Assembly: GCA_028717385.1 (NCBI GenBank)
Contig: JAQUNW010000003.1
Location: 12,640 to 76,639 of the forward strand
Direction of reading: 5' to 3'
From: Dehalococcoidales bacterium
GTDB lineage: Bacteria > Chloroflexota > Dehalococcoidia > Dehalococcoidales > CSSed11-197
Length of the DNA stretch: 64,000 bases
Made by a program: the position numbers and the translations under genes. The notes beneath the pieces are model-generated. The model did no database searches. It was not told the origin of the DNA and worked only from the letters and a program-made list of their open reading frames with translations. This document shows positions 24,009 to 53,775 of this stretch, in pieces (within the stretch, counting starts at the first letter, position 1; each line of letters opens with the position of its first letter).

Positions 24009-24081
24009 GTGCCGTTAGACAGTTAGGCCATAACGAATGTGAACCGGGATAACTACAAAGTAAATATAAAAGAAGGTACAT

Positions 24082-25298: not shown

Positions 25299-25868
25299 TT
25301 ATAGGAAACTGTAATATCCACCCTCGGCACATGTACGGCAGAGCTTTTTTCCATTTTTAACCACATGACGGGAATCGATGACGTTCTCTCCACAGTTTTC
25401 ACAGTAGATAGCTTCAACCGGCGGCCCTGCCAGGTCGCAGGGTTTTAATTCTATTTTTACGTTTCGGTAGGAAAGCAACTCCTCGAACGGCAGATTTTTA
25501 TAAAAGGCGATCATGTCTTCGCCGTCTTCAGGATATATGCGCTTTTTGTGATAGATGCGAACCGCTTTATCGGTATTCATATCGAGAAAACTGGCAGCGA
25601 CTATGCCATAGTCATAGAAACTATAACTACGCCTGCCGATTCGGCATCCGGTGACTATGCCGATGGAATCAGCCGGGCAGCGGTCGCATTCCACGAAGAC
25701 TTTCATTTTAGTCTGTTCGGATTCGTTATCCAGCTCCAGCAGCTTCATAGCATAGTGCGCCATTTTTACACCGATGCATTGTCCGGAACAGAGGTGCCCG
25801 TGATAAGCGATAGCCAGTTTCATATCCTCTTCGAAAGTTCTCATTTTTACTCCCTTTGTATATATCAA
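25299..25868 (-). CDS. FmdE-family protein with C-terminal zinc ribbon (second copy)
   Basis: 189 aa with HGHLCSGQCIGVKMA...ECDRCPADSIGIVTG and CENCGE...CRTC. It is a paralogue of 16959..17525. Confidence 0.75.
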   Translation of the reverse strand: MIYTKGVKMRTFEEDMKLAIAYHGHLCSGQCIGVKMAHYAMKLLELDNESEQTKMKVFVECDRCPADSIGIVTGCRIGRRSYSFYDYGIVAASFLDMNTDKAVRIYHKKRIYPEDGEDMIAFYKNLPFEELLSYRNVKIELKPCDLAGPPVEAIYCENCGENVIDSRHVVKNGKKLCRTCAEGGYYSFL

Positions 25869-27302: not shown

Positions 27303-27366
27303 AGGACTCGAACCACTGACCTCTGCGATGTCAACGCAGCGCTCTAACCAGCTGAGCTAACCGCCC
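27290..27366 (-). tRNA. tRNA-Val (anticodon GAC), CCA encoded
   Basis: GGGCGGTTAGCTCAGCTGGTTAGAGCGCTGCGTTGACATCGCAGAGGTCAGTGGTTCGAGTCCTCTACCGCCCACCA. It has a 7-bp acceptor stem, D and anticodon stems, and the loop TTGACAT. There is one U-U mismatch in the T stem. Confidence 0.88.
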
Positions 27367-28737: not shown

Positions 28738-31089
28738 ATGGATTCAAAGAGTTGTCAATTATTGGAATATGACCGCATACTAGAAATAATTGCGGGCTAC
28801 TCCGGGTTTTCTAGAAGCCATGATCTTGTACTCAACCTTAAGCCATCCATTGATATTGATCAAATCAGGGCGAGGCTTGCGAGATCAGCTGAAGCCAGAA
28901 CACTTCTTGAAACCGAGCCTGGTTTTAGCCTTGACGGAATAAAGGATGTCACCGCTCTTGCTGTAGCTGCGGGAAGAGGTAAAATGTTGGATCCGCTTCA
29001 GCTTCTGGACATAGCTCAGACGGTGAACATTTGTACCCGGCTACAAGCTGTAATAGGGAGCAGGGGGAAAGATTTGCCGCTTCTTTCGAGCCTTGCTGGA
29101 AGGATCGCGGATCTTAAGCCTGTGGAAAAAGAGATAATAAGAACGATTACCCCGGGAGGGGAGGTTCAGTCATCATCGTCACCCAGGCTTGCTCAGATAA
29201 GAAATGAGCTTAAATCGGTCCGGGAAAAGCTTCTCCGCGAGCTGGAAACCATTATTAAATCTGAAGAGGCCGCCAAGTCTCTCCAGGAAGCTATCATCAC
29301 TCAACGTGAAGGGCGCTATGTAGTACCTGTACGAGTTGAGAACAAGAGAGATATCAAGGGGATAGTTCATGATGTTTCTAATACCGGAGCAACTGTATTT
29401 ATAGAGCCATGGTCGATCATTGATACTGGAAATGAGCTTAAGCAGCTTGAGCTTGAAGAAATACGAGAAATCGAGAAAATTCTTGCTGGTTTAAGCGCTA
29501 AAGTTGGTAGTTATAGTCAAGAAATCTCTTTAACTATTGAGATTGCTGCCCAAATCGATCTCGAACTTGCCAAAGCGCGGTATGCATATTCAGTTACAGC
29601 CTTTGAACCGCAAGTTAGCTTACTGGAAAAGGATTCTACGCTTAAGCTTGTTCGAGCGCGTCATCCGCTATTAAAAGGTAAGGCAGTCCCGCTGGATCTG
29701 GAAATTGGCCGGGAGTATTCTACATTGGTAATAACCGGTCCTAATACTGGAGGGAAGACAGTTGCTCTTAAGACTATTGGCTTATTGTGCCTGATGGCAC
29801 AAGCAGGGCTACCGGTACCCGCGGATTCGGCAACACAGCTACCGGTTTTCGATGGTATTTTTGCCGATATTGGTGACGAACAAAGCATTGAACATACTCT
29901 TTCTTCATTTAGCTGGCACATGGGGAATATCAGCCGCATACTCAATCTTGCATCTCCAAAAAGCCTTGTGCTGATGGATGAACTAGGCACTAGCACTGAT
30001 CCAGTTGAAGGATCGGCACTGGCAGCAGCTATCATTAATCATCTGTTTACACAAGGCACCATGACAGTAGCCACCAGCCATTTTAATGAATTGAAAGCTT
30101 TGGCGCATACCACTCCCGGTATCAAGAATGCAGCTTTTGAGTTTGATCCAGTAACCCTGCTACCAACATATCGTATTGTGCCAGGGGTGCCGGGCGGCAG
30201 TAATGCTCTGATAACTGCTGCTCGGTTGGGAGTGCCAGGTCATATTATTCAATCAGCCAAAGAGCGTCTATCTTCGCAAGACAGGCAACTCGATTCATTA
30301 CTGTTTGAACTAGCAAACGAAAAAACCCGCGCACGAAATGCTACTTTTGAAGCAGAAACCGCACAGAAAGAAACCGAAAAACTGCGTAACGAACTTGCAA
30401 GCGAACTCAAGAAGCTAAAAACAGAAAAAACTAGGATTCTTGATAATGCAAGGGATGAAGTAGTAACGGAGATTGGAGACCTCGCCCGGGAAATTCGTAA
30501 TATTTCAGCTACGCTAAAAAAACAAAGGTCAAGAGAGCAGTTAGTAATAGCGGAAACTAGCCTGGAAAAGATACGGAAAAAGTTAAGAGAGGCACCAATA
30601 TTTAATCAAGGTGAACCGGCAGGGACTGCTGAGACTCAAGAAATAAATCCCGGTGACATGGTTTGGTTAAATGACCTGGCGATGGAAGCGCGAGTAGTGG
30701 CGTTCAACAATGCCACTGGTCAGGTCACTGCTGAAGCGGGGTCGTTGAGATTAACAGTTGATAGCGCCAATGTCACGCGGGTCAAACCGCAAGGCGCCAA
30801 TAAAGAAAAAAAATATACCGGCGGCACCAGAGTGATTAGGTCAAATATTTCTATGGAACTTGATCTACGTGGCCGGCGGGCTGATGATGTAGAATTAGAG
30901 TTGGAAAGCTATCTTGACGGTGCCATAGGGGCAAATCTTGATACAGTGCGTATTATACACGGGTTTGGTGCTGGAGTAGTGCGCCAAATAGTACGTGACT
31001 ATCTTTCACGACAAAAACTGGTAAAATCGTTCAGACCGGGAGTAAATGATGAGGGCGGTGACGGAGTTACCGTGGTAAAACTGGTGTGA
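28738..31089 (+). CDS. mutS2: endonuclease MutS2 (MutS paralogue with C-terminal Smr domain)
   Basis: 783 aa with Walker A GPNTGGKT, then DELGTSTDP, a long coiled-coil and an Smr domain LDLRGRRADD...VRIIHGFGAGVVR. Confidence 0.92.
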   Translation: MDSKSCQLLEYDRILEIIAGYSGFSRSHDLVLNLKPSIDIDQIRARLARSAEARTLLETEPGFSLDGIKDVTALAVAAGRGKMLDPLQLLDIAQTVNICTRLQAVIGSRGKDLPLLSSLAGRIADLKPVEKEIIRTITPGGEVQSSSSPRLAQIRNELKSVREKLLRELETIIKSEEAAKSLQEAIITQREGRYVVPVRVENKRDIKGIVHDVSNTGATVFIEPWSIIDTGNELKQLELEEIREIEKILAGLSAKVGSYSQEISLTIEIAAQIDLELAKARYAYSVTAFEPQVSLLEKDSTLKLVRARHPLLKGKAVPLDLEIGREYSTLVITGPNTGGKTVALKTIGLLCLMAQAGLPVPADSATQLPVFDGIFADIGDEQSIEHTLSSFSWHMGNISRILNLASPKSLVLMDELGTSTDPVEGSALAAAIINHLFTQGTMTVATSHFNELKALAHTTPGIKNAAFEFDPVTLLPTYRIVPGVPGGSNALITAARLGVPGHIIQSAKERLSSQDRQLDSLLFELANEKTRARNATFEAETAQKETEKLRNELASELKKLKTEKTRILDNARDEVVTEIGDLAREIRNISATLKKQRSREQLVIAETSLEKIRKKLREAPIFNQGEPAGTAETQEINPGDMVWLNDLAMEARVVAFNNATGQVTAEAGSLRLTVDSANVTRVKPQGANKEKKYTGGTRVIRSNISMELDLRGRRADDVELELESYLDGAIGANLDTVRIIHGFGAGVVRQIVRDYLSRQKLVKSFRPGVNDEGGDGVTVVKLV

Positions 31090-31841
31090 CCAATGAAGAA
31101 TCAATTAACGAAAAACATATGCACCCGGAGCAAATTCGCCGGAAGCTTAGTTTGCTTGCATCAGCTGAAGGTGACAGTAATTGTTGGTATTCACTGCCCG
31201 TAAATAGTGAGATTGGTATTCAAGCGCCTGGAGGATTTTACCTGCCGGAAGCAGTTCAGGAGCAAGCGCAAAAAAGCCTCACAGGATTTGCGGTATTTTG
31301 CACCAAACAAAACACGCAATGTGAATATACTTTGGTAATCCCTCCATTTCCTCTTAAAGAGACTCTTATTGGCAGCTACATAGAAACCGCTCCTTTGCTG
31401 GAAATTCTGGAACACCCATACGTGATTGGAATAGTGCTTATCCGGTTGGGTAGCTTTGCTTTTGGAGTGAGCAGGGGACAGAATCTTGTTGCTAGCAAAG
31501 TTGGCAAAGGATTAGTACATGGGCGTCACCGGCAAGGAGGTTCTTCGGCCAATCGGTTTGCTCGTCACCGGGAAAAACAGATGGAGATATTCTTTACCCG
31601 TGCCTGTAGCTACCTGCGGGAGAAGCTCGAGCCTTACCTGAAAGAAATCGATTATATACTATATGGAGGAGCGCGGACCACCATCATGGAGTTTAAAAAA
31701 CAGTGTCCGTTTACTGGAGTACTTGGCTATCCGGAGTTACCAAGCCAGCTTGACCTGCCTGATCCAAACCAAGCGGTTTTAAATAATGCATTGGAAAGAG
31801 CCTGGAGTAGTCGGGTATTTACCTGGTTAAGCCTTGAATAA
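31086..31841 (+). CDS. Vms1/ANKZF1-like (VLRF1 / eRF1-fold) putative peptidyl-tRNA hydrolase
   Basis: 251 aa with LIRLGSFAFGVSRGQNLVASKVGKGLVHGRHRQGGSSANRFARHREKQ, matching the VLRF1 core as I recall it (GG-S..RF.R.RE). The GTG start at 31086 overlaps the mutS2 TGA. Confidence 0.6.
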   Translation: MTNEESINEKHMHPEQIRRKLSLLASAEGDSNCWYSLPVNSEIGIQAPGGFYLPEAVQEQAQKSLTGFAVFCTKQNTQCEYTLVIPPFPLKETLIGSYIETAPLLEILEHPYVIGIVLIRLGSFAFGVSRGQNLVASKVGKGLVHGRHRQGGSSANRFARHREKQMEIFFTRACSYLREKLEPYLKEIDYILYGGARTTIMEFKKQCPFTGVLGYPELPSQLDLPDPNQAVLNNALERAWSSRVFTWLSLE

Positions 31842-38106: not shown

Positions 38107-39261
38107 TTATATTATTCCGGCAAGCTTGTCTGCCATTATCACGATAAGCCACGTATACCACAGAATAGCAGCCACCACTACGAGAGTAATAAAGATGCCC
38201 CTCGCTTTAAATCGGGTATTCAGAAAATAGAAATCAACTGCGCCTTCCGGGCATGCTTCGATGCACCTGCCGCAACGGATGCAATCTACGGTTGGTTTTC
38301 TTTTCTTGTCCAAATCATCAGGACTCAGCGCATACATGCGGCATTCCTGTACGCAGTCATAACACTGGACGCACTTATTTTTGTTGATCTGTACACGGAA
38401 AATGCTTATTTTATCGACCAGTGAAAATACCGCGCCAATCGGGCAGATATGGCACCACCATCTACGCTTGGTCATAAAGGGTAGTATGATAGAAAAGAAC
38501 GCAATAAGAGCAATCACTGACCAGAAGACAACATCGGCTGATAACCACAGAACCGGGCAGAATGTGCACACTAGCGGGAAGGCTAAAAATATAGATAGCA
38601 GTATCACTGTAATGAGGATTGCGAATTTGGAATCCTTGACCCACTCCTTTAAGCCGGAATAATAAGAACCTTTGGGTGTAACAGTTTTCTTTTTAAGGAA
38701 ATTTAGTTGCCACCTTTCCTTTTTGCCGGTAACCATGGCTTCGCTCAAGCCCCCAAAAGGGCATATCCAGCCACAGATGCCCCTTCCAAACGCTAAGCCG
38801 GTGGCTGCGTATGGAACTAATGAAAGCATGAATGCATTGAACGTTGGAGGAAAGGTGACCTGCCATATGTCAAAGGAAGGAATAAAGGCAGCTTTACCAA
38901 GAAGTACTTGGGATACCACGCGCGTGCAAGGGTAAGCCAGGGTTCCTATCGTCTCTCCCGGATGGTAATAAGTTAGCCAGTTTTGATGCTGGCTAGCCCA
39001 ATAAAGAAAGGATGAAGGTTTAAGAATGTCTACGATAATAAAAAGGGCAGTCAAAGAAAACAAGAAAATCCCGATAAAAAACAGTCGGCGGAAGCGTTCC
39101 ATTCGCGTGGTAGTCAGAATCAAGTAGATGAACGCACTGCCTAGTATTCCCATAACAATACCCAGCCAGGGAAACGGACTGAAGTACCACCAAACGGTAA
39201 AGCCTCCTGCTGCCAGCGCTATTATTAGCGCTTGTATCTTCGAGCTTATCGCTGGTCTCAT
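38107..39261 (-). CDS. membrane-bound polyferredoxin, NapH/MauN-like 4Fe-4S protein
   Basis: 384 aa with multiple TM segments, the CGWICPFGG and CHICPIGA motifs, and two ferredoxin clusters (CVQCYDCVQEC, CIRCGRCIEACP). Confidence 0.75.
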   Translation of the reverse strand: MRPAISSKIQALIIALAAGGFTVWWYFSPFPWLGIVMGILGSAFIYLILTTTRMERFRRLFFIGIFLFSLTALFIIVDILKPSSFLYWASQHQNWLTYYHPGETIGTLAYPCTRVVSQVLLGKAAFIPSFDIWQVTFPPTFNAFMLSLVPYAATGLAFGRGICGWICPFGGLSEAMVTGKKERWQLNFLKKKTVTPKGSYYSGLKEWVKDSKFAILITVILLSIFLAFPLVCTFCPVLWLSADVVFWSVIALIAFFSIILPFMTKRRWWCHICPIGAVFSLVDKISIFRVQINKNKCVQCYDCVQECRMYALSPDDLDKKRKPTVDCIRCGRCIEACPEGAVDFYFLNTRFKARGIFITLVVVAAILWYTWLIVIMADKLAGII

Positions 39262-40333: not shown

Positions 40334-40957
40334 ATGAAGAAAATCTTGGCTTCCATCCTTTTGGTCTTGCCGTTCATGATTGCTTCATGCGGGGGTTCCG
40401 TAAAAACGGCGGGATTATCATTGGTAGAATTTTCTACCGAAGATTTTGCCGGGTCCGGTAATTGCGCTGTATGCCATATTGATCTGGAGGACCAGATCGG
40501 TAATTACGTTTCAATTGGTACTCACTGGCGCTCCACCATGATGGCAAACGCAGCCAAAGACCCTTTCTGGCAGGCAAAGGTCGCTTCTGAAGTAGCTCGC
40601 AATCCCCATTTGAAAGAAGTTATTGAAGAGAAGTGCGCCAGCTGTCATATGCCAATGGCTTACACTCAGGCAGAAGTTAGAAATGGTTCCGCCATGATTT
40701 TTGATACCGGGCTTGCCAATACGAGTAATCCGCTCAACCCGGCGGCCATGGATGGGGTTTCGTGCACTCTTTGCCACCAGATAGTAGATCCGGTCCTTGG
40801 TAAATATACGGTGGACACAAGTGCCGAACCACCAGATCGGTTGATATACGGCCCATACAAAGATCCTGAGCAAAGCTTGATGATCTCTACTTCTCAATTT
40901 ACACCGGTATATGGAGAGCATATAACCAATTCGGTTCTTTGTGGCACATGCCACTGA
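40334..40957 (+). CDS. multihaem c-type cytochrome lipoprotein, N-terminal part (4 CxxCH), ending at an in-frame TGA
   Basis: The signal/lipobox is MKKILASILLVLPFMIASC, followed by CAVCH, CASCH, CTLCH and CGTCH. The TGA at 40955-57 is followed directly, in frame, by the next ORF. Confidence 0.7.
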   Translation: MKKILASILLVLPFMIASCGGSVKTAGLSLVEFSTEDFAGSGNCAVCHIDLEDQIGNYVSIGTHWRSTMMANAAKDPFWQAKVASEVARNPHLKEVIEEKCASCHMPMAYTQAEVRNGSAMIFDTGLANTSNPLNPAAMDGVSCTLCHQIVDPVLGKYTVDTSAEPPDRLIYGPYKDPEQSLMISTSQFTPVYGEHITNSVLCGTCH

Positions 40958-41944
40958 GTGACTACCCCGTGCGTCGATAGTAAGGGCGACGTACTAGGAA
41001 CCTTTCCGGAGCAGACTCCATGTCTGGAGCATATCAACAGCATTTATCCTGATCGGGGAATTGAATGCCAGACCTGCCATATGCCAGAGGCGGAATCTTC
41101 TGTAATAATTTCCAATGTGGGTTCAGGGTATGAAGACCGCGACCCGTTTAGCCAGCATTACTTTGTTGGTTCCAACGAGTTTATGCTTGAACTTCTCAAA
41201 GCCAATATCGACACACTCAGGATAACAGCATCTTCCGATAACTTTGATGGTACTATTAGCCGATTGATGAACCTGTTAAATAAGGAAACCGCTGTACTAT
41301 TATTCTCTAAAACAGAAAGATCTGGCGATCTGCTTATCCTGGATATAGATATCGAACAGCTGGTCGGCCATAAATTCCCAACCGGGTTTCCTTCCCGGCG
41401 AGCTTGGCTCCATCTCAAAGTTGCCGATAAAAACGGTAATGTGGTATTTGAATCCGGCAAGCCTCTAAAAGACGGACGCATACAAGGGTGTGACTCTGAC
41501 CAGGATATTTCCACTTATGAGCCACATTATGACGTAATACACCAGGAAGACCAGGTTCAGGTTTATGAGGCTGTGATGTTAAATAGCGATGGCGAAGTGA
41601 CCTATACCTTGCTCAGAGCCAACAAGTTTGCCAAGGACAACCGGCTGCTACCCAAAGGTTTCGATATCGTAAATTCCCACGAAAATACCAGAGTTTATGG
41701 CGAAGCACTGGATGACAGCAACTTTATGGGCGGATTCGACCGGATTACATATCAGGTAGATACAAACGGTACATCCGGCACCCTGACAGTGGAAGTAGAC
41801 CTTTTGATGCAGACCGTTTCTTACCCGTACATACAGGATTTTTCTGGTGAAAATACTCCAGAAGCAACCCGGTTCCTGGGCATGTACGAAGAGATGGATA
41901 AATCGCCTACGCTGGTTACTTCAATCAGTACGATAGTGCCTTGA
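40958..41944 (+). CDS. multihaem cytochrome, C-terminal part (1 CxxCH plus beta-rich domain); same frame as 40334..40957
   Basis: It contains CQTCHMPE and HKFPTGFPSRRAWLHLKVADKNGNVVFESGK. There is no signal peptide or RBS of its own, and the track start (GTG at 40958) is simply the codon after the TGA. Confidence 0.65.
   Translation: MTTPCVDSKGDVLGTFPEQTPCLEHINSIYPDRGIECQTCHMPEAESSVIISNVGSGYEDRDPFSQHYFVGSNEFMLELLKANIDTLRITASSDNFDGTISRLMNLLNKETAVLLFSKTERSGDLLILDIDIEQLVGHKFPTGFPSRRAWLHLKVADKNGNVVFESGKPLKDGRIQGCDSDQDISTYEPHYDVIHQEDQVQVYEAVMLNSDGEVTYTLLRANKFAKDNRLLPKGFDIVNSHENTRVYGEALDDSNFMGGFDRITYQVDTNGTSGTLTVEVDLLMQTVSYPYIQDFSGENTPEATRFLGMYEEMDKSPTLVTSISTIVP
40967..40998 (+). other. SECIS-like stem-loop 12 nt downstream of the in-frame TGA
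   Basis: GTGCGTCG (40969-76) pairs with CGACGTAC (40987-94), 8 bp including one G-U. The 10-nt loop is AUAGUAAGGG. CC/GG can extend the stem across a 2-nt bulge. Confidence 0.35.
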
Positions 41945-41963: not shown

Positions 41964-42143
41964 TTAGCCCAGGCTCTTTCGCCCGATATAGAGACTGTTT
42001 TGGGGGATATCTTCGAATATTACAATCACACTTTCGCTGTTTACCCCGGTATTTTCGGTTATGATATCTGTGATACTTTCATCGATTTTCTTTTTGGCCT
42101 CGTCATTTCTTCCTGCTGCCCATTCGATTTTGATTACTGGCAT
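41964..42143 (-). CDS. 4-oxalocrotonate tautomerase family protein
   Basis: 59 aa from the internal Met: MPVIKIEWAAGRNDEAKKKIDESITDIITENTG..SESVIVIFEDIP. It has Pro1 and typical length. The track ORF extends to 42188. Confidence 0.75.
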   Translation of the reverse strand: MPVIKIEWAAGRNDEAKKKIDESITDIITENTGVNSESVIVIFEDIPQNSLYIGRKSLG

Positions 42144-42425
42144 AATACACCTCTTTCTTTCCCTGCACCGTATCAGTCTTATACCCATGAAAAGTAAACC
42201 TGTTTAGAATATAAATTCATTAATATATATTCTCTACTCTTGCTAACAGACAGCCGTTGTATTCCAAGCGCCAAGTTTGTCTGCATAAATAGGTACTAAC
42301 TAGAGAATACCAAAATACCTTAATGCACTATGGTTTTAAAATACACACATTATTCAGGCTTTATTTATTATACCTGGTTGCTGATTCTGTTTACATAAAT
42401 ATTGACCTTGGGCAACCCCTATAGG

Positions 42426-42461
42426 AAAAAAACATAGGGGTGATTTTATATCACCCCTATG
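42426..42461 (-). terminator. rho-independent terminator of the 44827-42485 gene(s)
   Basis: A perfect 12-bp stem CATAGGGGTGAT/ATCACCCCTATG (42433-42461) with a 5-nt loop, followed on the minus strand by U7 (42432-42426). Confidence 0.8.
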
Positions 42462-42484
42462 TCAATTAGCGCATTACTCTTTGT

Positions 42485-43144
42485 TTACACAAAATTGAAA
42501 CGGTAAGTCCAGGTTGCTTTAAAATTACCACTCTTGTCAGTTATAGTTGGATTATCAGGTGCGTGCCATCTGTCATTGTAAAAGTTGTATATTCCCAAAG
42601 TTGAAATACCGCTGCGCGAGTATGAATATTTAACCGTCATGACTAGCTGATTGTCTTCCATGGTAATCGTACCGGAGCCGGTCATAGAGTATAAATAATC
42701 AAACTCGCTTTTTGCATAGTGTTTTTCCATGCCAGGATCATCCGCGAAAGGCGCCCGTTCAACACCATATGCGTCTACAGTGCAGGAAATATTTACAGTA
42801 CCCGATTGAGCAGTATTATCCCAAGTCCCTTCCATGGTGAAGTTAGAAGCATTAATAGTCCAGTTTATTTCGTTGGTTTTTGTTGTTGTAGATGCAGATG
42901 GCACCTCTGCTGAAAATTTGCCGTCTTTTGAAATTCTTATTGTGCCGGTATTAGCCAGGGCAGCCCTGATACCTTCGCCCGGGGTTGCGGTTGATGTACC
43001 GCTGGAATACACAAAACTATTAAGTTCAAGCTCTTCACCAATATCAATTGACACGGTCGGAGGCATGACAATGAATTCAACCTCTTTAACCACTTCATCA
43101 TCTTCAGGATTTACGATTTCAACCTTGTTGGGAGATCCTGCCAT
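42485..43144 (-). CDS. hypothetical beta-rich protein; probably the C-terminal part of the upstream lipoprotein
   Basis: 219-aa track ORF. The 198 nt upstream of it (43145-43342) are open in the same frame and read straight back to the TAG of the preceding ORF. Confidence 0.5.
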   Translation of the reverse strand: MAGSPNKVEIVNPEDDEVVKEVEFIVMPPTVSIDIGEELELNSFVYSSGTSTATPGEGIRAALANTGTIRISKDGKFSAEVPSASTTTKTNEINWTINASNFTMEGTWDNTAQSGTVNISCTVDAYGVERAPFADDPGMEKHYAKSEFDYLYSMTGSGTITMEDNQLVMTVKYSYSRSGISTLGIYNFYNDRWHAPDNPTITDKSGNFKATWTYRFNFV

Positions 43145-43342
43145 GATATGCCCGAGTACCCTGAAAGGCAGTGAAGCTTTACCCTCATCGCTTATCTCCT
43201 TCTGCCACCATTCCTTATCGATAACTTCATCAGCCAGGGGAGCGATGCGGGCTATGTAACCGGCATACAGGGCTTTTTCCGGCTTGGGGTCAGCTTCATC
43301 GTAAACAGAATCGTAAATCTGAACAGTTACTATCCTGTTGAG

Positions 43343-44827
43343 CTATTGAGCGATGGCATCCAGTTCTATTCCAACCTGGTTTTCATGTTCCTGGGCAAGC
43401 ACTCGCCCAAGCCGTATCAATACCGCATCCAGGGAATCATTTAACAGGTCATTTTTTTGGCGGCCGGATATCTTGTCCATAATACCCTGGTTCAAGCCGC
43501 CACCGCCAGTGAAGCCGTTTTTTTGTGCCTGGCTCTGGTAGGCGGCAACTATTGTTTCATCCTCCCAGAATTGCCAGCAGTAGCGATCGATTTCTGCCAT
43601 GATTTTCTGGTTTAGTTCCTGAGATGACTTGGCCTGTTTTGCCATAGGCTCTAATATTAAATACCAGTCCTTGGGAGTACGCTTCACGCCCGATTCGTGG
43701 AGATAATAAAGGCGGTACGCTTCGGTATAAATATTTTCTCTACCACTCCAGGCTTCGGTAGCAAACTCACTCAAAGCATAATCAATGCAATAAACGCCTA
43801 CCGAGCCCAGTTGAAGTATGGCTGATCCAAACTTGGAAACGCCGTAGTAGGTGAGGTTTTTGATCAGGTTGGTATGCAGCGCCTTGCTATCCCCATTCTG
43901 GTAATCGACTGCTGCTTGTGCAATAGCAGAAAGTAGTCCAACATTGCCCATGGCATTGCCTATGCCATCAAGAAACTCTGAAGCATATACAGTGTTGGTC
44001 AGGAATGTGATCCCGGCACCGGACATGTTCAGCCAGTCACCCACCACTTTGTTGCCCAGCTCAAGGGCAGATGGGCCAGGGTTCATACCATTATCAATTG
44101 CTTCACTTATTATTCCGGCATAATCGGCAGAACTGCTAGCATTGCGTATAGCTACCTTGGGAAGCGTAAAATCAACGTATGCAGCACGCGTGTATTCTCT
44201 GTCAACCACAAATGCTCCGTATACGGAAAGATGATCGGTGGTGATGGTGATGTTGCCGGCAGACGGGTTAATGTCATAGGATACCGGCTCCCATACTTTA
44301 AGAGCCTGGTTGTAGTAGCAGGCACCGACATATTCAGCCGGGTCTGCTCCGGCAGGCAGAAGGGTTTTGTCATAGGGTATGGTGATATCCATGAGGCCTA
44401 CCAGTTCTTCATCAGTATCGATGCGGAAATCCCAGGCATTTACCGACAGTTCATCGTTGATCAGCATGTTTTCCATCGGGGCAATGGTAACCTGGGCTTC
44501 CTCATTCAGGCATACCGGGGATACCTCGATGGAAACACCTTTACCGGAGACTTTCAGGTTCTCTTCATTCAATTTGCCCGATACAATGTTACTTGTAGTG
44601 GTGGGTATCGGTGTAGTGGTATAAGGCTTGGTGGTAGTTGTAGTTGTTGCCGGAAGAGTGGTTTTAGGGGCAGTTGTGGTTGGTTGCGTTGTTGCAGGGG
44701 CGGGTGAAGTTGTTGTGGGATCTTTTCCGCCTCCGCCACAGGCTGGCAAGAACGTGGCAACAAATACTAGCAATACAAGCACTGATGTAAGTTTTTTGGC
44801 TCTGGGGGATATTAGTCGTCTGGTCAT
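43343..44827 (-). CDS. hypothetical secreted lipoprotein with a long Pro/Thr linker
   Basis: 494 aa with a signal/lipobox (FLPAC) and about 50 aa of T/P-rich linker. I recognised no family. It ends at the TAG at 43345-43343. Confidence 0.6.
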   Translation of the reverse strand: MTRRLISPRAKKLTSVLVLLVFVATFLPACGGGGKDPTTTSPAPATTQPTTTAPKTTLPATTTTTTKPYTTTPIPTTTSNIVSGKLNEENLKVSGKGVSIEVSPVCLNEEAQVTIAPMENMLINDELSVNAWDFRIDTDEELVGLMDITIPYDKTLLPAGADPAEYVGACYYNQALKVWEPVSYDINPSAGNITITTDHLSVYGAFVVDREYTRAAYVDFTLPKVAIRNASSSADYAGIISEAIDNGMNPGPSALELGNKVVGDWLNMSGAGITFLTNTVYASEFLDGIGNAMGNVGLLSAIAQAAVDYQNGDSKALHTNLIKNLTYYGVSKFGSAILQLGSVGVYCIDYALSEFATEAWSGRENIYTEAYRLYYLHESGVKRTPKDWYLILEPMAKQAKSSQELNQKIMAEIDRYCWQFWEDETIVAAYQSQAQKNGFTGGGGLNQGIMDKISGRQKNDLLNDSLDAVLIRLGRVLAQEHENQVGIELDAIAQ

Positions 44828-46032: not shown

Positions 46033-46509
46033 TTACAGCTTCTTGTAGTATGTTATCCGGTGATCACCAGGAGCGTAAAAATCTGGAATGCAAGATACTT
46101 GACAGTAGCCATGAGAAGAATAAAATTTGCGGGTCTTTTCATATTCTGGTATCGATGAGGTTTCTATAAGCGCCAGTTTTCCTCCCAGTAGGCGGATGTT
46201 AGTCTCCGCTTCATTGATTAATGATGAACCAATGCCAAAGCCTTGTCGTGCGGGAATTACGGCTTCCCAGTAAATGTCCCAGGTACTCTCGGTGAGGGGA
46301 GTAGGGCCATAGCAAATATATCCAACCAAAACATGGTTTTCTTCAGCTACCAGAATGTGGTATCCAGAATTGGTGCCTTTGCCAAGATATTCGTCAACCA
46401 GTTCTTTGGCGATGGTGATTTCTATTGGTTTGAATTGAGGAATTGTTTCAAGTAAATAGACAATTTCAGACTTGTCCTGTGCACTCATTTGGCGGATTAC
46501 AATACTCAT
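46033..46509 (-). CDS. GNAT family N-acetyltransferase
   Basis: 158 aa with the acetyl-CoA motif RQGFGIGSSL. Its start lies 1 nt after the stop of the upstream ATP-grasp gene. Confidence 0.8.
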   Translation of the reverse strand: MSIVIRQMSAQDKSEIVYLLETIPQFKPIEITIAKELVDEYLGKGTNSGYHILVAEENHVLVGYICYGPTPLTESTWDIYWEAVIPARQGFGIGSSLINEAETNIRLLGGKLALIETSSIPEYEKTRKFYSSHGYCQVSCIPDFYAPGDHRITYYKKL

Positions 46510-46510
46510 A

Positions 46511-47500
46511 TCAACTATTATCCAGTGCCTGTTCGATAATTATCTTAATCAATTCTGTATATGTCAGCCCGGCTGCTGCAGCTTGTTTAGCGCAGCCTGC
46601 ATCTGGGGAGATATCTGGGTTCGGGTTTACCTCTAACACATAGAAACTCCCATAATCATCCTGGCGGATATCAACTCTGGAGTATCCATGGCAGCCACAG
46701 GCTTTATAGGCGTTAATAGATAGTTCTCTGATTTTAGATTCATCTCTTCGTGATGTTTTAGCCGGGCAAACAGATTGGGTTTGTTTGTAGTATAAACTAT
46801 CCGGATTCCATTTAGATTCAAACGTAAGAATCCTGGGCATTTCGGATGGGAGGTCATACACAATTTCAGATACTGGCAGCACCTTATTGCCAAGCACAGT
46901 TGCATTAAACTCTTTACCATCAATGAATTCTTCAACCAGAGCCGGTTTTCCTGAAGTTAGCAGAATTCGTTCCAAAACGCTATTAAGGCTTTCCGGTGAA
47001 TATATAACGTTGTCAATATAAATGCCGTGACTGGCATCTTCCTGTGAAGGTTTTGCGATAACCGGGTAGTTAATTGTTAACTCTCCCGGGGAAGACGAAT
47101 CAAGAATTTGGAAATCAGGTGTAGGGATGCCTTTCTTTTTAAAAGTGTTTTTAGAAAGCACCTTATCCAATCCAATCTCAAGAGCCTCTGGTGGATTACC
47201 GGTATATGGGATATCCAGGTTATGGCAACCTTTGGCAATTTCAACCTCGGTTTCCGGTTGGCCGTCGAATCCTTCAAAGAGATTGAATATCACCGAAGCC
47301 TTGATACGGCTAACGGTATCAAGCGCTTCATCAAGTGGGGGTGAAAGCGGCACTAAAAAAGACTGGCAGCTAAGCTCCAGCAGGGCATTCTCAACTGCAG
47401 CAACAGCGTTTAGTACTCCTTTAATGGCCGCATCTTCATCAGATGCAGTATAACGCGAGGGCGCTGGTTTATTGTAAATAATTGCTATATCTGGATGCAT
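46511..47500 (-). CDS. ATP-grasp ligase, D-alanine--D-alanine ligase-like (copy 2)
   Basis: 329 aa with YPVIAKPSQEDASHGI and SRVDIRQDDYGSFYVLEVNPNPD. It overlaps the upstream gene by 16 nt. Confidence 0.75.
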   Translation of the reverse strand: MHPDIAIIYNKPAPSRYTASDEDAAIKGVLNAVAAVENALLELSCQSFLVPLSPPLDEALDTVSRIKASVIFNLFEGFDGQPETEVEIAKGCHNLDIPYTGNPPEALEIGLDKVLSKNTFKKKGIPTPDFQILDSSSPGELTINYPVIAKPSQEDASHGIYIDNVIYSPESLNSVLERILLTSGKPALVEEFIDGKEFNATVLGNKVLPVSEIVYDLPSEMPRILTFESKWNPDSLYYKQTQSVCPAKTSRRDESKIRELSINAYKACGCHGYSRVDIRQDDYGSFYVLEVNPNPDISPDAGCAKQAAAAGLTYTELIKIIIEQALDNS

Positions 47501-48492
47501 TGCGGATATCTTTCGAGCGCAGCTGAAAGAATCATCTGGATAAGGCTTTGGTGAGATATGCCCAGAAAGCTGGCCATTATTACCAAATCACTGTGATTGC
47601 CCAAGCCAGGAAGCGGATTAATCTCGATAAAATAAGGTTGCCCCTGTTTATCGATTCTAAAATCAAGCCTGGCCATATCCAGGCAGCCGAGTAATGAGTA
47701 AATCTTGAGGCTGGTCTTTTTTATTTCTTCTAATACCGTCTTTGGTAAATTGGCAGGGCATTCATAATCGACCTGGTTTACATAATCCCGCTTTACTTCA
47801 ATTGAATACATGAACATTTCGTGCCGATGTTTGGGCTTGATTTCCATTATCCCAAGAACATCGGGTTTATGAGAGCCAATAATTCCCACTGTTACTTCTC
47901 TGCCAGATATATACTGTTCTATCATCACTGGCTGATTATATCCAACCAGTGATGTTGTGCAGAGTGCTTTTGCTTCCTGGACATTTTGCGCAAGAGAGCA
48001 ATTATGGATTCCGATGCTTGAACCTTCATGGGCAGGTTTTACAACCAAAGGGAAGCCAATATTATCCCAAGATACTCTATCTGCCGATTGCTTATCACTC
48101 ACAACCAGCCAGTGAGGTGTAACTATGCCGGAAGCTTTGAGAATATGCTTGGTTAGTGGTTTATCAAGACAGATCGAAAGACATTGGGGGGATGAACCAG
48201 TATAGGGAATGTTATACATTTCAAGCACTGACGGAACCTGCGCCTCGCGTGATGGATAGTTCCCGCGACCTTCGCTGATGTTAAAAACAAGTTCGGCATC
48301 AGTACCTGCGCACATATTACTAAGAAATTCCAAACCCCCACCCAGATGTATCACCGTATGGCCAAGTGCCTCAAGAGAAGAAGAAATCAACTGAACGGTT
48401 TCAACCGAGTCGTATTCTTCTGCAATATCTTCCGGCAAGCCGGGTTTCAGATCAAAGCTGGTTTTGAGATCGTAAGTGAGACCGATGTGCAT
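47485..48492 (-). CDS. ATP-grasp ligase, D-alanine--D-alanine ligase-like (copy 1)
   Basis: 335 aa from the ATG at 48492 (MHIGLTYDLK), with FPLVVKPAHEGSSIGI and ARLDFRIDKQGQPYFIEINPLPG. The start lies 1 nt after the kamA TAA. The track ORF extends spuriously to 48687. Confidence 0.78.
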   Translation of the reverse strand: MHIGLTYDLKTSFDLKPGLPEDIAEEYDSVETVQLISSSLEALGHTVIHLGGGLEFLSNMCAGTDAELVFNISEGRGNYPSREAQVPSVLEMYNIPYTGSSPQCLSICLDKPLTKHILKASGIVTPHWLVVSDKQSADRVSWDNIGFPLVVKPAHEGSSIGIHNCSLAQNVQEAKALCTTSLVGYNQPVMIEQYISGREVTVGIIGSHKPDVLGIMEIKPKHRHEMFMYSIEVKRDYVNQVDYECPANLPKTVLEEIKKTSLKIYSLLGCLDMARLDFRIDKQGQPYFIEINPLPGLGNHSDLVIMASFLGISHQSLIQMILSAALERYPQCIQI

Positions 48493-48493
48493 A

Positions 48494-49810
48494 TTACGAT
48501 TCTGCCCCCGAGTATGCATGGGCAGGTGGTATCGAAACAACTCTTTCAGAATTGTTGGGTTGTTCGTACGATTCTGCCGATGGATTCCTATATGAATATA
48601 GATTGCCTCGATAATTTTTAAATAACATCGATCCTGGATTAATCGCTGCAATGTAGTCGGGCAGCAGAGGCACCTTGCCACCACCATCTGGTAAATCGAC
48701 TACGAACGAGGGGATTCCCATCCCGGAAGTATGGCCGCGCATTCCAGCGATAATCTCAATGCCTTTTTCTACGGGTGTACGTAAATGCTCAGCTCCTCGT
48801 ACCTCATCGCATTGGAAGAGGTAATAAGGCCGAACCTTTATTTTCAGCAATCCCTGGCAAAGAGCCAGCTGATCTTGAACGCTATCGTTAATACCTTTCA
48901 AAAGAACCGATTGGTTGTTAACCGGAATACCGTGCCGAAGCAGGCGTTCGCATGCTGCAGCAGACTGTGGCGTGATTTCATTCACAGTATTGAAGTGAGT
49001 ATTGAACCACACCGGGCTATAGCGAGATAGCATTTCGCATAATTCGTCATCGACGCGTTGAGGCAGCACTACCGGGAATCGGGACCCGATGCGAATTATT
49101 TCTACATGACTGATACTACGCAGTGAAGATAAAATACTCTCCAGGCGTGCTGTGCTGAGGCTGAGTGGATCTCCGCCCGAAACAATCACATCCCTGATTT
49201 CCGTATGAGAGCGTATATAATCGAACATTGCCTCAAATTCTTCCTTGGAGTGGACCATGCCTTTATGATTCCAGTCACGTTTACGAGTGCAATGCCGGCA
49301 AAGCATTGGGCAAATATTGGTTGAAACCATTAGAGCCCTATCGCTATAGCGGTGAACAAGGCCGGGTACTACTGAATCTCCCTTTTCATCCAGCGGATCA
49401 TCGTAACCTTGCATATGTTCATCGATTTCAAGTATAGAGGGTACCGATTGCCTTCTCACCGGATCGTTAGCATCGTTTGCATTTATGAGAGTGAGGTAAT
49501 AAGGCGTAATTGAAATTGGGTAGCGAAGGGTAACCTTTTCAAGGCTTTGGATTTCTTCAAAAGACAGCGGTAAGTAGCGAGCAAGCTCTTGAATTGTGGT
49601 AATACGATTCTGGAATTGCCACTTCCAGTTGTTCCAAAGTTCATCAGAAACAAACGGGAAGTATTTGCTTCGATTGGAGAAGGGTTGGGGAGGTTCGCTG
49701 GACGTACCGGGAGGTTCTGTTTCTTCCGTGCTTTCCGATGAGGCAGCATCAGGTATAACAATATTAGATTGCCTGGATTCAACCGAGGGATTTACAACCC
49801 CATGTTTCAC
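48494..49810 (-). CDS. kamA: lysine 2,3-aminomutase family radical SAM enzyme (KamA-like)
   Basis: 438 aa with the radical SAM motif CPMLCRHC, then VRPYYLFQCDEVRGAEHLRTP and FVVDLPDGGGK. The GTG start is preceded by AAGGAG. It carries an N-terminal extension of about 50 aa rich in S/E/P. Confidence 0.85.
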   Translation of the reverse strand: MKHGVVNPSVESRQSNIVIPDAASSESTEETEPPGTSSEPPQPFSNRSKYFPFVSDELWNNWKWQFQNRITTIQELARYLPLSFEEIQSLEKVTLRYPISITPYYLTLINANDANDPVRRQSVPSILEIDEHMQGYDDPLDEKGDSVVPGLVHRYSDRALMVSTNICPMLCRHCTRKRDWNHKGMVHSKEEFEAMFDYIRSHTEIRDVIVSGGDPLSLSTARLESILSSLRSISHVEIIRIGSRFPVVLPQRVDDELCEMLSRYSPVWFNTHFNTVNEITPQSAAACERLLRHGIPVNNQSVLLKGINDSVQDQLALCQGLLKIKVRPYYLFQCDEVRGAEHLRTPVEKGIEIIAGMRGHTSGMGIPSFVVDLPDGGGKVPLLPDYIAAINPGSMLFKNYRGNLYSYRNPSAESYEQPNNSERVVSIPPAHAYSGAES

Positions 49811-49942: not shown

Positions 49943-50758
49943 TTAAGTGCTAACCACAGATACAATCAACCTGATTGCAACTGCAAGAAGACCTAAAGCG
50001 AGGAAGCGGATAATTACTTGCCCGGGCACTTTTTTGGAATATTTTGCACCGACTTGAGCCCCGGCTATAGCTCCCAATGAGAGAAGAAGTGCAATTGCAA
50101 AACCATCAGCAAAGCTTTCTCTGATAATATGGGTTATCAGGGCTGAAAACGTCGTGATGGAAATAACCATATGAGAAGTTGCAGTGGCTATATGCACTGG
50201 GTAGGAAAGCAGGTTGCACATAGCTGGGACGTGTATAATACCTCCTCCGATACCCAGCAGCCCTGCAACAAAGCCGGTAAAAAAAGCCAGAACAATACCC
50301 AGTTTGAGAGAATATGAAAAACTGTGTTTGGTACCTTCGGAGTCAGTTATTTCGCGTTTAGTGGTACCGTTAAGGCTGCAAGAGTTGGATTTTTGAACAC
50401 CGGGCTTTACTAACAGATAAATGGATAGAGCAATCAATACGACGCTAAATATGAGCTGAAACGAGTTTCGGCCAAGCAGACCGGTGACGTTGGCTCCTAT
50501 GATAGCACCCGGTATACCGGCCAGTGAAAAAATCAATGCAGACCGAAAATCAATTCTCTTCAGCCGGCTGTAAGCAAGAGTTCCAGAAAAGGAATTAAAG
50601 AAAGTAACTGTGAGGGTTATTGCAGTAATGGTTGAGGGGCTATAATCCGGGTATATTAATAACAGAACAGGGACAAGAATAAAGCCGCCGCCAGCGCCGA
50701 TAAGCGTTCCGAAACCACCCACCAGAAATCCGATAATTGGCAGAAGAAACCAGGGCAA
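49943..50758 (-). CDS. TauE/SafE (DUF81) family anion exporter
   Basis: 271 aa with 7-8 TM segments and the duplicated G-rich motifs (GAGGGFILVP, GIGGGIIHVP) typical of the family. Confidence 0.8.
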   Translation of the reverse strand: MPWFLLPIIGFLVGGFGTLIGAGGGFILVPVLLLIYPDYSPSTITAITLTVTFFNSFSGTLAYSRLKRIDFRSALIFSLAGIPGAIIGANVTGLLGRNSFQLIFSVVLIALSIYLLVKPGVQKSNSCSLNGTTKREITDSEGTKHSFSYSLKLGIVLAFFTGFVAGLLGIGGGIIHVPAMCNLLSYPVHIATATSHMVISITTFSALITHIIRESFADGFAIALLLSLGAIAGAQVGAKYSKKVPGQVIIRFLALGLLAVAIRLIVSVVST

Positions 50759-50934
50759 GAAGTTACTCCTGTGATTAATTTAGTGCCATTATAGAGTTTT
50801 TAACCGTTACTGAACAACCGCAACAGGAGATGGCAGCGGTTAAAACGCCTGTCATTGACGGTATGGTTAAAAACTTACATAATTAAAGAGCTTGAGCTGA
50901 TTTTATCAGCGGGGTATAAGGAGAAAAATAAAAG

Positions 50935-51381
50935 ATGGTTGCCAGAATTCAAAAAATATTGAGATATACTGTGTTTTTTACACTTGGTTTTGCGGTAGCG
51001 GGGGCGATTTTAGGTTTTATGCTTAGCAGCCAGGATGAACGAGAGTGGATCTGGATTGCCGGATTTGCTCTAATTGGGGGATTCGCCGGCGCCGCCATTG
51101 CTCTTGTAACAGGCCGTTATAAAATGCTTTTCAAGCTGGTTGTAGCCGGAGCTATAGTGGGCGCTTTAAGCCAATGGATGATAATTGCATCAGTCGCTGA
51201 AGAATGGTTGCAAATGACCATTTCCGGTGCAGTATTTGGAGCGTTTGCAGGCATTTCGATCCCGATGCTCGAGAGAGAGAAGAAATTACCCGTTGAAAAA
51301 ACTTTTGAATGTGATGAGTGTGGCCGCAAGGTAGGCAAGGACGACAAGTTTTGTGCAGGTTGTGGAACTGAATTCGAATAA
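50935..51381 (+). CDS. membrane protein with C-terminal zinc ribbon
   Basis: 148 aa with four predicted TM helices, then CDECGRKV..DKFCAGCG. Confidence 0.55.
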   Translation: MVARIQKILRYTVFFTLGFAVAGAILGFMLSSQDEREWIWIAGFALIGGFAGAAIALVTGRYKMLFKLVVAGAIVGALSQWMIIASVAEEWLQMTISGAVFGAFAGISIPMLEREKKLPVEKTFECDECGRKVGKDDKFCAGCGTEFE

Positions 51382-51399
51382 TCGATTCAGTAATCGTTG

Positions 51400-53640
51400 T
51401 TATTGATATGCCTCACGTTTAAATTGCCTCAGTCTGAGTGAATTGGTTACAACCGTCACAGAGCTGAACGCCATTGCTACTGCAGCCATGATCGGGTTTA
51501 AAAAACCATATTCCCCAAGCATGAAACCGAGATATCCAGGCGCATTGCCAGAATTAAAGAAGACATAGAGTAGCCCTGCGGCAATCGGTATCAAAAGCGT
51601 ATTATAGGCAAAAGCCCAAAAGAGGTTTTGTTTTATTGTCCGCATGGTTCTCCAGCCCAGCCGAATAGCATTTACCATGCCTTCAAGTTTTCCTTTCATG
51701 AGGGTAATGTCTCCGGTTTCAATTGCAATATCGCTCCCGGTTCCAATTGCAATTCCTGTATTTGCCTGGGCAAGTGCTGGAGCATCATTTATACCATCGC
51801 CCACCATTGCTACGATTTTACCCTTTTCCTGTAAATCCTTAATGACTTTAGCTTTGTCTTGTGGTAATACTCCAGCAATGACTTTTTCAATGCCTGCCTT
51901 ATCGGCAATAGCCATGGCAGTTTCATGATTATCGCCCGTCAGCATTACCAAATCCAGATTCATTTCCCTTATTTTCTCGACCGCCCAGCGGCTTTCAGCT
52001 TTTAGTGTATCAGCAAGCGCAAAAATTGCCACAGGAGCCTTGTCAACTACCATTATCATGATGGTTTTCCCTTGTTGTTTTAAAGAATGCGCTGCAACAG
52101 CTAGTTCGCCCAGCTCTATATTAATCTTCTGTAATAGGGCTTCATTACCTATAACCACAGTTTTGCCCTGGTATACAGCTTTTACCCCCATGCCGGATAC
52201 GGACATAAACTTGTCTGCATCTTCAATCAAAGCGTTTTCTGCCCTGGCGTGTTTAACCAAGGCCTGCGCCAGTGGATGTTCAGAATACTTTTCTACGCTT
52301 GCGGCAATCCCAAGGGCTGAAAGTCTACCCTGATCGGTTGAGGTGATAATATCGGTAACTTCGGGAACTCCGGTTGTCAAAGTGCCGGTTTTGTCTATTA
52401 CCACAGTATTAAGGCGAGCGCATGTTTCAAGTGCGGCTGCATCGCGGATTAAAATACCGTTTTCAGCGCCTACTCCAGTGCCAACCATAATAGCAGTGGG
52501 GGTCGCTAGCCCTAATGCGCAAGGGCAGGCTATGATTAAAACAGCAATAAAATTAAGAAATGCATAAGTAAGCGAAGGTTCTGGCCCTAAAAAGTACCAC
52601 AAAATAAAAGTAAATATAGCTATCGAAACAACTACCGGCACGAATACGCCAGATACAACATCGGCGAGGCGTTGAACTGGAGCCCGCGAGCCCTGTGCTT
52701 CGTCAACCAGGCGGATTATCTGGCTTAATACAGTATCTTTACCGACACGGCTGGCTTCGAAAGTAAAGCTGCCGGTTTTATTAATAGAAGCACCTATAAC
52801 TTCATCCCCAAGGTTTTTCTCAACTGGAAGACTCTCCCCGGTAAGCATTGATTCATCAACGCTTGAAGCTCCTTTAACGATAATCCCATCAACCGGTATC
52901 TTTTCACCAGGACGAACCAGAATAATATCTCCTTTAATGACCTGGGAGACTGGAACAGAAGTCTCAACGCTTTCTCGAATGACCGTAGCTTTCTTAGGGC
53001 TCAGGTCGATCAACTTTTTTATTGCCTGGGAAGCCTGCCTTTTTGCTCTGGCTTCTAGATATTTCCCAAGAAGCACCAAGGCTATTATCATGGCGGATGT
53101 ATCAAAATATACTCCGGTTGAGATTTCGGCGGTCGAGAATAAGCGGGGGAAAAGCACAACCGCCACGCTGTAGAAGTACGCTGCTGAAGTACCAATTGCT
53201 ATCAGCGTGTTCATATCAGCGGTTTTATTTTTAAGTGCACTCCAGGCTCCTTTATAAAAGCCGGCACCTGCCCAGAATTGAACTGGAGTGGCTATCAGCC
53301 ACAAAAGATACTCAACATGTTCAAAGTGGGCAAAAAAGTGGATAAGCATGATAATAACAGATGCAATAGCGGCAAAGATAAAGCGTATTTTTGCCTGTTT
53401 GTCTGTATTATCTAATACAGCCGGAGTAGTTTCTGGGGAAGCCTGGAAACCGGCATTTTCAACGGCCTTAATCAAATCTTGTGTACTAACTTTGCCTTGG
53501 TGGGTTATTGTAGCTTTTTCAGAAGCGAGATTTACATAGGCGTTTTCTACGCCAGGTACAGCCAGTAATGCTTTTTCGGTACGCCCAACACATGCTGCAC
53601 AATGCATTCCACTGATTTTAAGAACAGTTTTTTCTGCCAT
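51400..53640 (-). CDS. copA: copper-translocating P1B-type ATPase
   Basis: HMA domain [10 protein letters not shown], the TGES and CPC ([10 protein letters not shown]) motifs, DKTGT, and GDGINDAP. I start it at the Met at 53640 ([11 protein letters not shown]); the track ORF extends to 53685. Confidence 0.9.
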
Positions 53641-53775
53641 TTGCTCTTCTCTGGTAAATTGGTTTTGTGGGTAATATAATAGCATATTCTATAATGGTAC
53701 CTAAGTAAAAATAATTATAAAGAGTTTATATTGGCGAGTGGCATTCTTTGACTATTCGTCTTAACACAATCTAAA

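Follow-up and report, generated by a model that had tools for sequence, protein, structure and literature searches.

An in-frame UGA, very probably read as selenocysteine, beside the fourth haem motif of a pentahaem cytochrome from Dehalococcoidales

A cytochrome gene with an internal TGA

Whether a TGA inside an otherwise open reading frame ends a protein, breaks a gene or encodes selenocysteine (Sec, U) is the question raised by a cytochrome gene in a stretch of 64,000 nucleotides from a Dehalococcoidales bacterium (contig JAQUNW010000003.1 of assembly GCA_028717385.1, positions 12,640 to 76,639), which was analysed as a whole and is here called the window. The gene (40334-41944, plus strand) is a single frame of 536 residues whose only internal stop is the TGA at 40955-40957. 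An earlier note, made from these letters without database searches, had proposed one protein of about 536 amino acids with five CxxCH motifs and a lone TGA behind the fourth of them, and the translation of the frame bears this out. It had listed Sec insertion, a recent nonsense mutation and a sequencing error as the options. The first of these is strongly supported by the conservation of the TGA, by an orthologue with Cys in its place, by selection on both sides of the codon and by a covarying hairpin, and we consider it highly probable that the cytochrome is one intact gene whose internal TGA encodes Sec, the complete coding sequence being then that of a selenoprotein with U at position 208.

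The open reading frame given in the earlier note started at TTG 40298; the ATG at 40334 is the likelier start. From there the protein begins with MKKILASILLVLPFMIAS-C19-GG, which reads from the sequence as a lipoprotein-type signal peptide with the lipobox I-A-S-C19 (40334-40390; this and the following features of the gene are all on the plus strand), and similar lipoboxes are found in the 33 clusters of N-terminal fragments described below. The first three haem motifs, CAVCH (residues 44-48, 40463-40477), CASCH (residues 101-105, 40634-40648) and CTLCH (residues 144-148, 40763-40777), are invariant in the family; in the fourth, CGTCH (residues 203-207, 40940-40954), Gly204 is specific to the clade of the window protein and the family has Ala. 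The TGA directly abuts this fourth motif, giving the order C203-G-T-C-H207 and then the position of U208. The fifth motif, CQTCH (residues 245-249, 41066-41080), lies downstream of the UGA, and the true stop of the gene is another TGA at 41942-41944, which has no hairpin downstream.

Homologues that are full-length at 550-610 amino acids cover both halves of the frame as single chains, and the NCBI label for the N-terminal half of the window protein is a 219-aa "multiheme c-type cytochrome", truncated. The attachment of haem to c-type cytochromes takes place outside the cytoplasm. The export signal is found in the N-terminal half only and haem motif 5 in the other; since the half carrying motif 5 has no signal peptide, and its haem can mature only after export, the two halves belong to one exported chain.

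Conservation of the TGA

The same TGA stands in the same column in 14 other contigs (L001-L004, L006, L007, L009, L037, L082, L083, L085 and L147-L149), which are 53-100% identical to the window and come from several metagenome samples and from metagenome-assembled genomes (MAGs) labelled Dehalococcoidales, Dehalococcoidaceae or Chloroflexota. Carriers of the TGA form include the assemblies GCA_041654615.1 (a 99% identical copy, on contig JBAZDE010000025.1), GCA_043819155.1, JAQUQL01, JAQWDO01, JAFGLQ01 and CAYNLZ01 and the 1.0-Mb contig ERZ21869602 ctg94708l; the Cys form occurs in Ga0180438_10093715 and the Ser form in ERZ24794648 NODE_94592. These relatives were gathered by scans of metagenome and genome collections and by look-ups of protein hits. 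In addition, a protein search with the N-terminal half gave 33 clusters formed at 90% identity (P0121-P0153, 59-99% identical) that stop exactly at "...CG[TS]CH", one of them as CGTRH.

The contig L001 is a separate metagenomic sequence that shows 81% nucleotide identity to the window and has the TGA in the same column. Compared with it, the window has 49 synonymous and 16 non-synonymous differences upstream of the TGA and 104 and 49, respectively, downstream, which therefore indicates purifying selection on both halves. Neither half contains a further stop or a frameshift in any of the members examined. Moreover, one locus nested within the TGA clade (L008, 78.7% identical to the TGA-type L147) has TGT, a Cys codon, in the TGA column.

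Outside this clade the column is occupied differently. A set of 118 full-length homologues has Thr (about 92), Asn (24), Ser (1) or Met (1) at position 208 and Cys in no case, and at the nucleotide level the codon is ACN (Thr) in 38 distant loci and TCG (Ser) in the closer relative P0002 (contig L146). The earlier note had asked whether Cys or Sec occupies this column in homologues, and had taken a non-Cys residue without a conserved hairpin as a sign of a pseudogene or an error. The broad family, with Thr or Asn, not Cys, and without the hairpin, would have called for that verdict. Among the orthologues of the clade, however, the residue is always U or C and the hairpin is retained, so that this argument for a pseudogene does not apply there.

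The genetic code of the window is standard, since TGA terminates 11 of the 45 open reading frames of at least 200 amino acids, among them that of MutS2 (28738-31089), which retains a complete terminal Smr domain. A global reassignment of TGA is thus ruled out, and the use that the earlier note had made of the mutS2 stop was justified. Four other pairs of open reading frames joined by a TGA were considered in the window and rejected, all being antisense to longer genes, and no hairpin was found after any other in-frame TGA of the window; the cytochrome is consequently its sole candidate.

The hairpin downstream of the TGA

A stem-loop resembling a selenocysteine insertion sequence (SECIS) element follows the TGA at 40965-40998. 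Its upper stem of 8 bp is formed by GUGCGUCG (40969-40976) and CGACGUAC (40987-40994), which enclose the 10-nt loop AUAGUAAGGG (40977-40986), and a lower stem of 2 bp (CC/GG, 40965-40966 with 40997-40998) lengthens it; the minimum-free-energy (MFE) structure given by RNAfold is this hairpin. The stem and loop sizes in the earlier note were right. Its spacer of 12 nt was not, the spacer being 11 nt and the stem beginning at the 12th nucleotide after the TGA. An equally good hairpin follows 21 of the 2,127 TGA trinucleotides of the window (1.0%), and the fold z-score over 81 nt is only -1.39. In a single sequence the hairpin is weak, merely suggestive evidence, and it is the comparative data that give it significance.

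All eight stem pairs are present in each of the 16 U/C-type loci. The 38 Thr-type loci reach 3-7 of the eight pairs and none of them adopts this hairpin; as their peptides are similar, the possibility that the hairpin is forced by the peptide motif P-[YC]-V-D..G-[DN]-V was ruled out. Across 11 distinct sequences, 110 of 110 cells of the alignment are paired, as compared with 20-37% in a control in which the partners were slid. In this alignment one pair is compensatory (U-A in six sequences, C-G in five) and two more have one-sided changes that preserve the pairing (U-A/U-G and A-U/G-U). The observed covariation score was matched by one of 500 shuffles, and the compensatory change links the synonymous GTC/GTT to the non-synonymous GAC/AAC. 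The third codon position is invariant at only 8 of 183 columns with a conserved amino acid, and four of these eight belong to the stretch from codon -1 to codon +10 around the TGA, an enrichment (Fisher p = 5e-5).

The consensus for bacterial SECIS (bSECIS) elements includes a stem of 4-16 bp, a loop of 3-9 nt with a G in its first two positions, a distance of 16-37 nt from the UGA to the loop and an MFE of -7.5 kcal/mol or lower (PMC13188914). With a stem of 8 bp, 19 nt from the UGA to the loop and an MFE of -9.9 to -12.8 kcal/mol, these three features lie within the consensus in 11 of 11 sequences. The resemblance to bacterial SECIS geometry that the earlier note had seen is therefore sustained for stem, spacing and energy, and only in part for the loop, as is discussed below.

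The arms of the RNA hairpin also encode residues 210-214 and 220-225 (window 40961-41008), which are predicted to pair as the two strands of a β-hairpin in the protein, so that RNA and peptide pairing overlie the same 34 nt. The 5' arm contains the codon of Cys213 (40970-40972), a residue found only in the sub-clade nearest the window; the family has Tyr.

Selenocysteine and its alternatives

According to the reading that we favour, the UGA at 40955-40957 would be recoded to selenocysteine U208 with no termination. The mRNA hairpin 11 nt past the UGA would work as a SECIS element, as in the standard bacterial model, and would recruit SelB·GTP·Sec-tRNA(Sec) to the ribosome for the insertion of U208. 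At the level of the lineage there is good evidence that Sec is used: selCDAB and a Sec-containing FdnG are present in all analysed Dehalogenimonas genomes (PMC13390414; also PMC4918011), and some Dehalococcoidia MAGs have 46-49 selenoproteins, among the largest bacterial selenoproteomes (PMC13326102).

A number of observations weigh on the other side. No tRNA-Sec was detected by ARAGORN in the 64-kb window or in nine related contigs, and Pfam searches of nearly all window open reading frames of at least 110 amino acids, as well as of the flanks in relatives, gave no SelA, SelB or SelD. The loop of 10 nt is just beyond the consensus of 3-9 nt (it is 6 nt if an inner U24·G31 pair closes), and the rule that a G occupies the first two loop positions is obeyed by 7 of the 11 sequences and broken by four. 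Neither the Rfam scan of the whole window at gathering thresholds nor a permissive scan (E ≤ 10) of 40900-41080 placed a SECIS or any other family at the site. The covariation amounts essentially to two stem haplotypes and one compensatory event. Furthermore, the Cys-type L008 retains the hairpin, and the hairpin alone therefore cannot tell Sec from Cys forms.

Some of these points would suit a read-through that does not involve selenium, in which a near-cognate or suppressor tRNA (for Trp, Cys, Gly or Arg) decodes the UGA with some frequency and the hairpin slows the ribosome or stimulates the read-through, the product being a selenium-free full-length protein. The lack of sel genes and tRNA-Sec in the window and flanks, the loop that departs from the bSECIS consensus in some members and the lack of an Rfam match are all compatible with it. 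No such system is known in Chloroflexi, and a column that alternates between U and C is a classic sign of Sec, here in a clade in which Cys230 and His233 were acquired as well; the spacing and the stem fit the geometry used by SelB, and the Sec decoding documented in Dehalococcoidia was cited above. We give this explanation a small chance. A true split gene, with a stop at the TGA that yields a four-haem lipoprotein and re-initiation of the remainder at an adjacent GTG, is what the gene callers and NCBI would imply, as they give two separate or truncated open reading frames (P0001, P0121). The earlier note was correct that the second half has no signal peptide; its claim that there is no independent start needs a small correction, as a GTG does directly follow the TGA in the window, though in most relatives this codon is GTA, a non-start, and the GTG is therefore not a conserved restart codon. 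A separate downstream half would have motif 5 and need maturation outside the cytoplasm with no signal to take it there, full-length homologues are all single chains, and splitting would leave both the Cys codon of L008 and the conserved hairpin unaccounted for. A split gene is in our opinion very improbable.

As for a pseudogene that arose by a recent nonsense mutation, or an error of sequencing or assembly, it is true that TCA (Ser), TGY (Cys) and TGG (Trp) each differ from TGA by one nucleotide and that the broad family has a sense codon here. Set against this, the same TGA recurs in the 14 other contigs, down to about 53% identity, and 33 protein clusters terminate at the same residue; there is purifying selection on either side of the TGA, with no other stop or frameshift in the members examined, and a divergence of 15-45% rules out that the contigs are chimeric copies of one sequence. 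These two options of the earlier note are accordingly excluded for practical purposes, the chance left to them being negligible.

Family and fold

The window protein belongs to a very large family (more than 7,700 hits, mostly of 550-610 aa). Pfam gave only multihaem hits below threshold, and the NCBIfam model NF040886, "multiheme c-type cytochrome (seleno)protein ExtKL", was matched with 34.6 bits against a cutoff of 250 (E = 8e-9) over residues 41-253 only. The AlphaFold model has a pLDDT of 85 and a pTM of 0.86, and its only significant match in the PDB is 5ze8 (Foldseek E = 6.7e-15, TM 0.68 on the target, over the whole chain), which is also the best PDB match by sequence profile (E = 2e-6). 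The predicted fold is thus of the pentahaem cytochrome c552/MccSep type, in which a haem cap at the N-terminus is followed by an Ig-like domain at the C-terminus. The structure 5ze8 is that of the penta-haem cytochrome c552 of Thermochromatium tepidum, which differs in having no Sec, in being smaller (385 residues in the structure) and in sharing only 16% identity with the window protein.

The earlier note had pointed to Geobacter ExtKL, annotated as a multihaem (seleno)protein, as a gene once split in the same way. ExtKL (GSU2937-2936, Geobacter sulfurreducens) is MccSep, a tetrameric five-haem selenoprotein polysulfide reductase (PMC13510729; PDB 9wt8; NF040886) that was characterised in 2026. 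Its Sec325 is placed in a loop of the Ig domain (GHSIPDG-U-PTPNR), beside the strictly conserved Cys239, the distal ligand of haem 2, and Sec and the haem-ligating Cys catalyse polysulfide reduction; the family is defined by Sec or Cys at the U325 site (PMC13510729). MccSep and the window protein have in common that they are exported five-haem cytochromes built from this haem cap and Ig-like domain, and both genes have one in-frame UGA followed by a stem-loop and were once annotated as two open reading frames. The motif GH-x-x-P-x-G-x-P aligns between the two proteins, and the kinship between their sequences, seen in the match to NF040886, is weak but real.

The parallel is right in kind, both being five-haem selenoproteins (in the window, putatively) once cut in two. 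It does not extend to orthology, which was ruled out by the score of 34.6 against 250 bits and by the residue at the U325 site. The family profile aligns the MccSep loop with GHKFPTG-F-PSRR of the window protein, where the U325 site is Phe352 (41387-41389, within the homologous segment 41366-41401, plus strand; family profile against PDB 9wt8 and 5ze8, and Foldseek to 5ze8). MccSep has Gly226 after its fourth CxxCH, where the window protein has U208. The two Sec sites are therefore at non-homologous positions, despite the shared fold and ancestry. By the U325 definition of the MccSep paper itself the window protein falls outside that family. It is also about 100 residues longer, it is a lipoprotein of Chloroflexi whereas MccSep is periplasmic and found in Desulfobacterota or Nitrospirota, and its gene has around it none of the extHIJ-type neighbourhood of ExtKL.

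Large pentahaem cytochromes (lPHC, Gsu2801-like), which are widespread, have a five-haem domain larger than that of ExtKL and an Ig-like domain (PMC11976967), and they fit the Thr-type family of more than 7,700 proteins by description alone. No report of a Sec-containing lPHC, or of any Sec member of the family of the window protein, was found in the literature searched. A 2026 review lists as annotated haem-related Sec families the GSU2204-family CXXCH protein (NF041027) and the Otr-type octahaem cytochrome (TIGR04315) (PMC13188914). The window protein gave no hit to either model at E ≤ 0.1, and both architectures are unlike its own, the GSU2204 family being a partner of an MtrB/PioB-like barrel and the Otr type having eight haems.

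Residue 208 and its companion residues

The U/C clade differs from the family consistently at only six alignment columns. Half of these lie close together in the segment that links haem motif 4 to haem motif 5: T208→U/C, Y230→C and W233→H. In the 10 U/C-clade sequences compared, position 230 (41021-41023) is always Cys and position 233 (41030-41032) always His; the family has Tyr or Phe at the former and Trp at the latter. The Ser-type relative P0002 (L146, 3001-4755) has Ser (TCG), Tyr and Thr at positions 208, 230 and 233, respectively, and its hairpin is partly decayed (7 of 8 pairs). This protein has 71-76% identity with U/C members, against a maximum of 59% with any Thr-type protein, and it shares with the TGA-type L147 and L148 a gene order comprising MerR, a 327-aa protein and DUF5679. 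P0002 is thus nested in the Sec clade and has lost U208, C230 and H233 jointly, these being replaced by S, Y and T. The joint gain and the joint loss of U208, Cys230 and His233 argue that the three work as a unit.

The only invariant His residues of the family outside the haem motifs are H275, H346 and H398, too few for conserved residues to provide bis-His ligation of all five haems. Cys230 itself lies between haem motifs 4 and 5, and HMMER places MccSep C239 about 8 residues earlier in the same segment, with low confidence, so that the two Cys residues are not equated by the alignment.

What is new here is the selenoprotein clade, the position of the Sec (CxxCH-U) and the coupled U/C/H switch, the recoding mechanism itself being ordinary. 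The usual Cys↔Sec pattern is broken, as the ancestral residue in the family is Thr or Asn and Sec would arrive along with newly gained Cys and His residues. The joint gain and loss offer a natural experiment in the evolution of a selenium active site. Public databases give the window gene, and no fewer than 33 related clusters, in split or truncated form, so that both selenoproteins and cytochromes of Dehalococcoidales are counted too low.

Possible function

The gene product would be a c-type cytochrome with five haems that is exported and held by a lipid anchor at the outer membrane face of the Dehalococcoidales cell. U208 would directly follow His207, the axial ligand of haem 4, and because it adjoins this ligand the haem chain would be close enough for electron transfer over a short distance. 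Taking MccSep as a model, we are tempted to suggest that U208, Cys230 and His233 make up a redox-active catalytic centre that receives its electrons from the haems. The selenolate would attack a substrate with an S-S bond or with Se, for example polysulfide or selenite; the adduct would be resolved by Cys230, His233 would serve as acid/base or as a haem ligand, and re-reduction would take place via the haems. Such a centre would be assembled from structural elements other than those of MccSep. We put forward this specific catalytic model tentatively, considering it possible rather than probable. Two results speak against it: no conserved sulfur or electron-transfer neighbourhood was found around the cytochrome in the loci compared, so that no partner gene favours a particular substrate, and the alignment of the Cys230 region to MccSep C239 has low confidence.

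It is also conceivable, though doubtful, that selenium-haem catalysis was invented twice in the pentahaem-cytochrome fold. In MccSep the Sec reaches the active haem from the Ig-domain loop, and in the Dehalococcoidales clade U208, with the newly acquired Cys230 and His233, would form a separate centre, a selenenylsulfide pair or even a chalcogen-ligated haem. Were a second Sec to have arisen independently at another place in this fold, catalysis by selenium and haem would be a recurring solution, and the candidate enzyme is directly testable. If this were true, non-dehalogenating Dehalococcoidales would possess a lipid-anchored reductase outside the cytoplasm that acts on polysulfide, elemental sulfur, selenite or a similar compound, a respiratory capacity not previously credited to them and possibly a chalcogen-linked extracellular electron sink in uncultured Dehalococcoidales.

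Neighbourhood and other features of the window

Downstream of the cytochrome, three minus-strand genes (41964-44827) accompany the TGA-type cytochrome in several relatives, as seen by tblastn synteny in L001, L004, L082, L084 and L085. They encode a 74-aa tautomerase-like protein (41964-42188), a 219-aa protein (42485-43144) and a 494-aa lipoprotein-like protein (43343-44827), the last two without a Pfam family. Between the genes for the 74-aa and 219-aa proteins lies a perfect, terminator-like 8-bp palindrome (ACCCCTAT, 11 nt, ATAGGGGT; 42403-42453). Distant TGA-type loci have other synteny, with the MerR, 327-aa protein and DUF5679 genes mentioned above. About 1 kb upstream of the cytochrome and divergent from it, a gene encodes a Fer4_5 membrane polyferredoxin of the NapH/RdhC-like type (38107-39261, minus strand), which the 99%-identical MAG copy has and remoter relatives lack. 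A TauE/SafE sulfite-exporter-family gene and a Cu-type P-ATPase gene are found 8-10 kb downstream (49943-53685, minus strand).

Between the cytochrome and these last genes, lysine-2,3-aminomutase, two D-Ala-D-Ala-ligase-like ATP-grasp enzymes and a GNAT acetyltransferase are clustered (46033-49810, minus strand). The aminomutase/ATP-grasp cluster is kept in a related MAG (L082, 13089-16081) and may make a β-lysine-derived solute or small peptide. The mutS2 gene, encoding the MutS_V and Smr domains, is followed by a VLRF1-type release-factor-like open reading frame (acVLRF1, of Actinobacteria/Chloroflexi), with stop and start overlapping (28738-31841), and the two may be a ribosome-rescue gene pair. 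Beside a tRNA-Val there is a truncated serine-recombinase frame with Recombinase and Zn_ribbon_recom domains and without the resolvase catalytic domain (26307-27366), which may be left over from an integrated element.

A Moco/tungsten riboswitch (RF01055, 72 bits) is located just upstream of a solute-binding-protein frame (SBP_bac_11). Near it are two FmdE-like frames and two DUF364/DUF4213 "heavy-metal chelation" frames, adjoining a FecCD-type ABC importer, and the region (23831-25002, 16920-17525, 25299-25868 and 13885-20541) looks like one for molybdate or tungstate uptake and handling. Finally, a PyrR-binding RNA element (RF00515, 54.4 bits, just at threshold; 3441-3541, minus strand) lies upstream of pyrR-like, pyrB-like and dihydroorotase-like genes (590-3442, minus strand).

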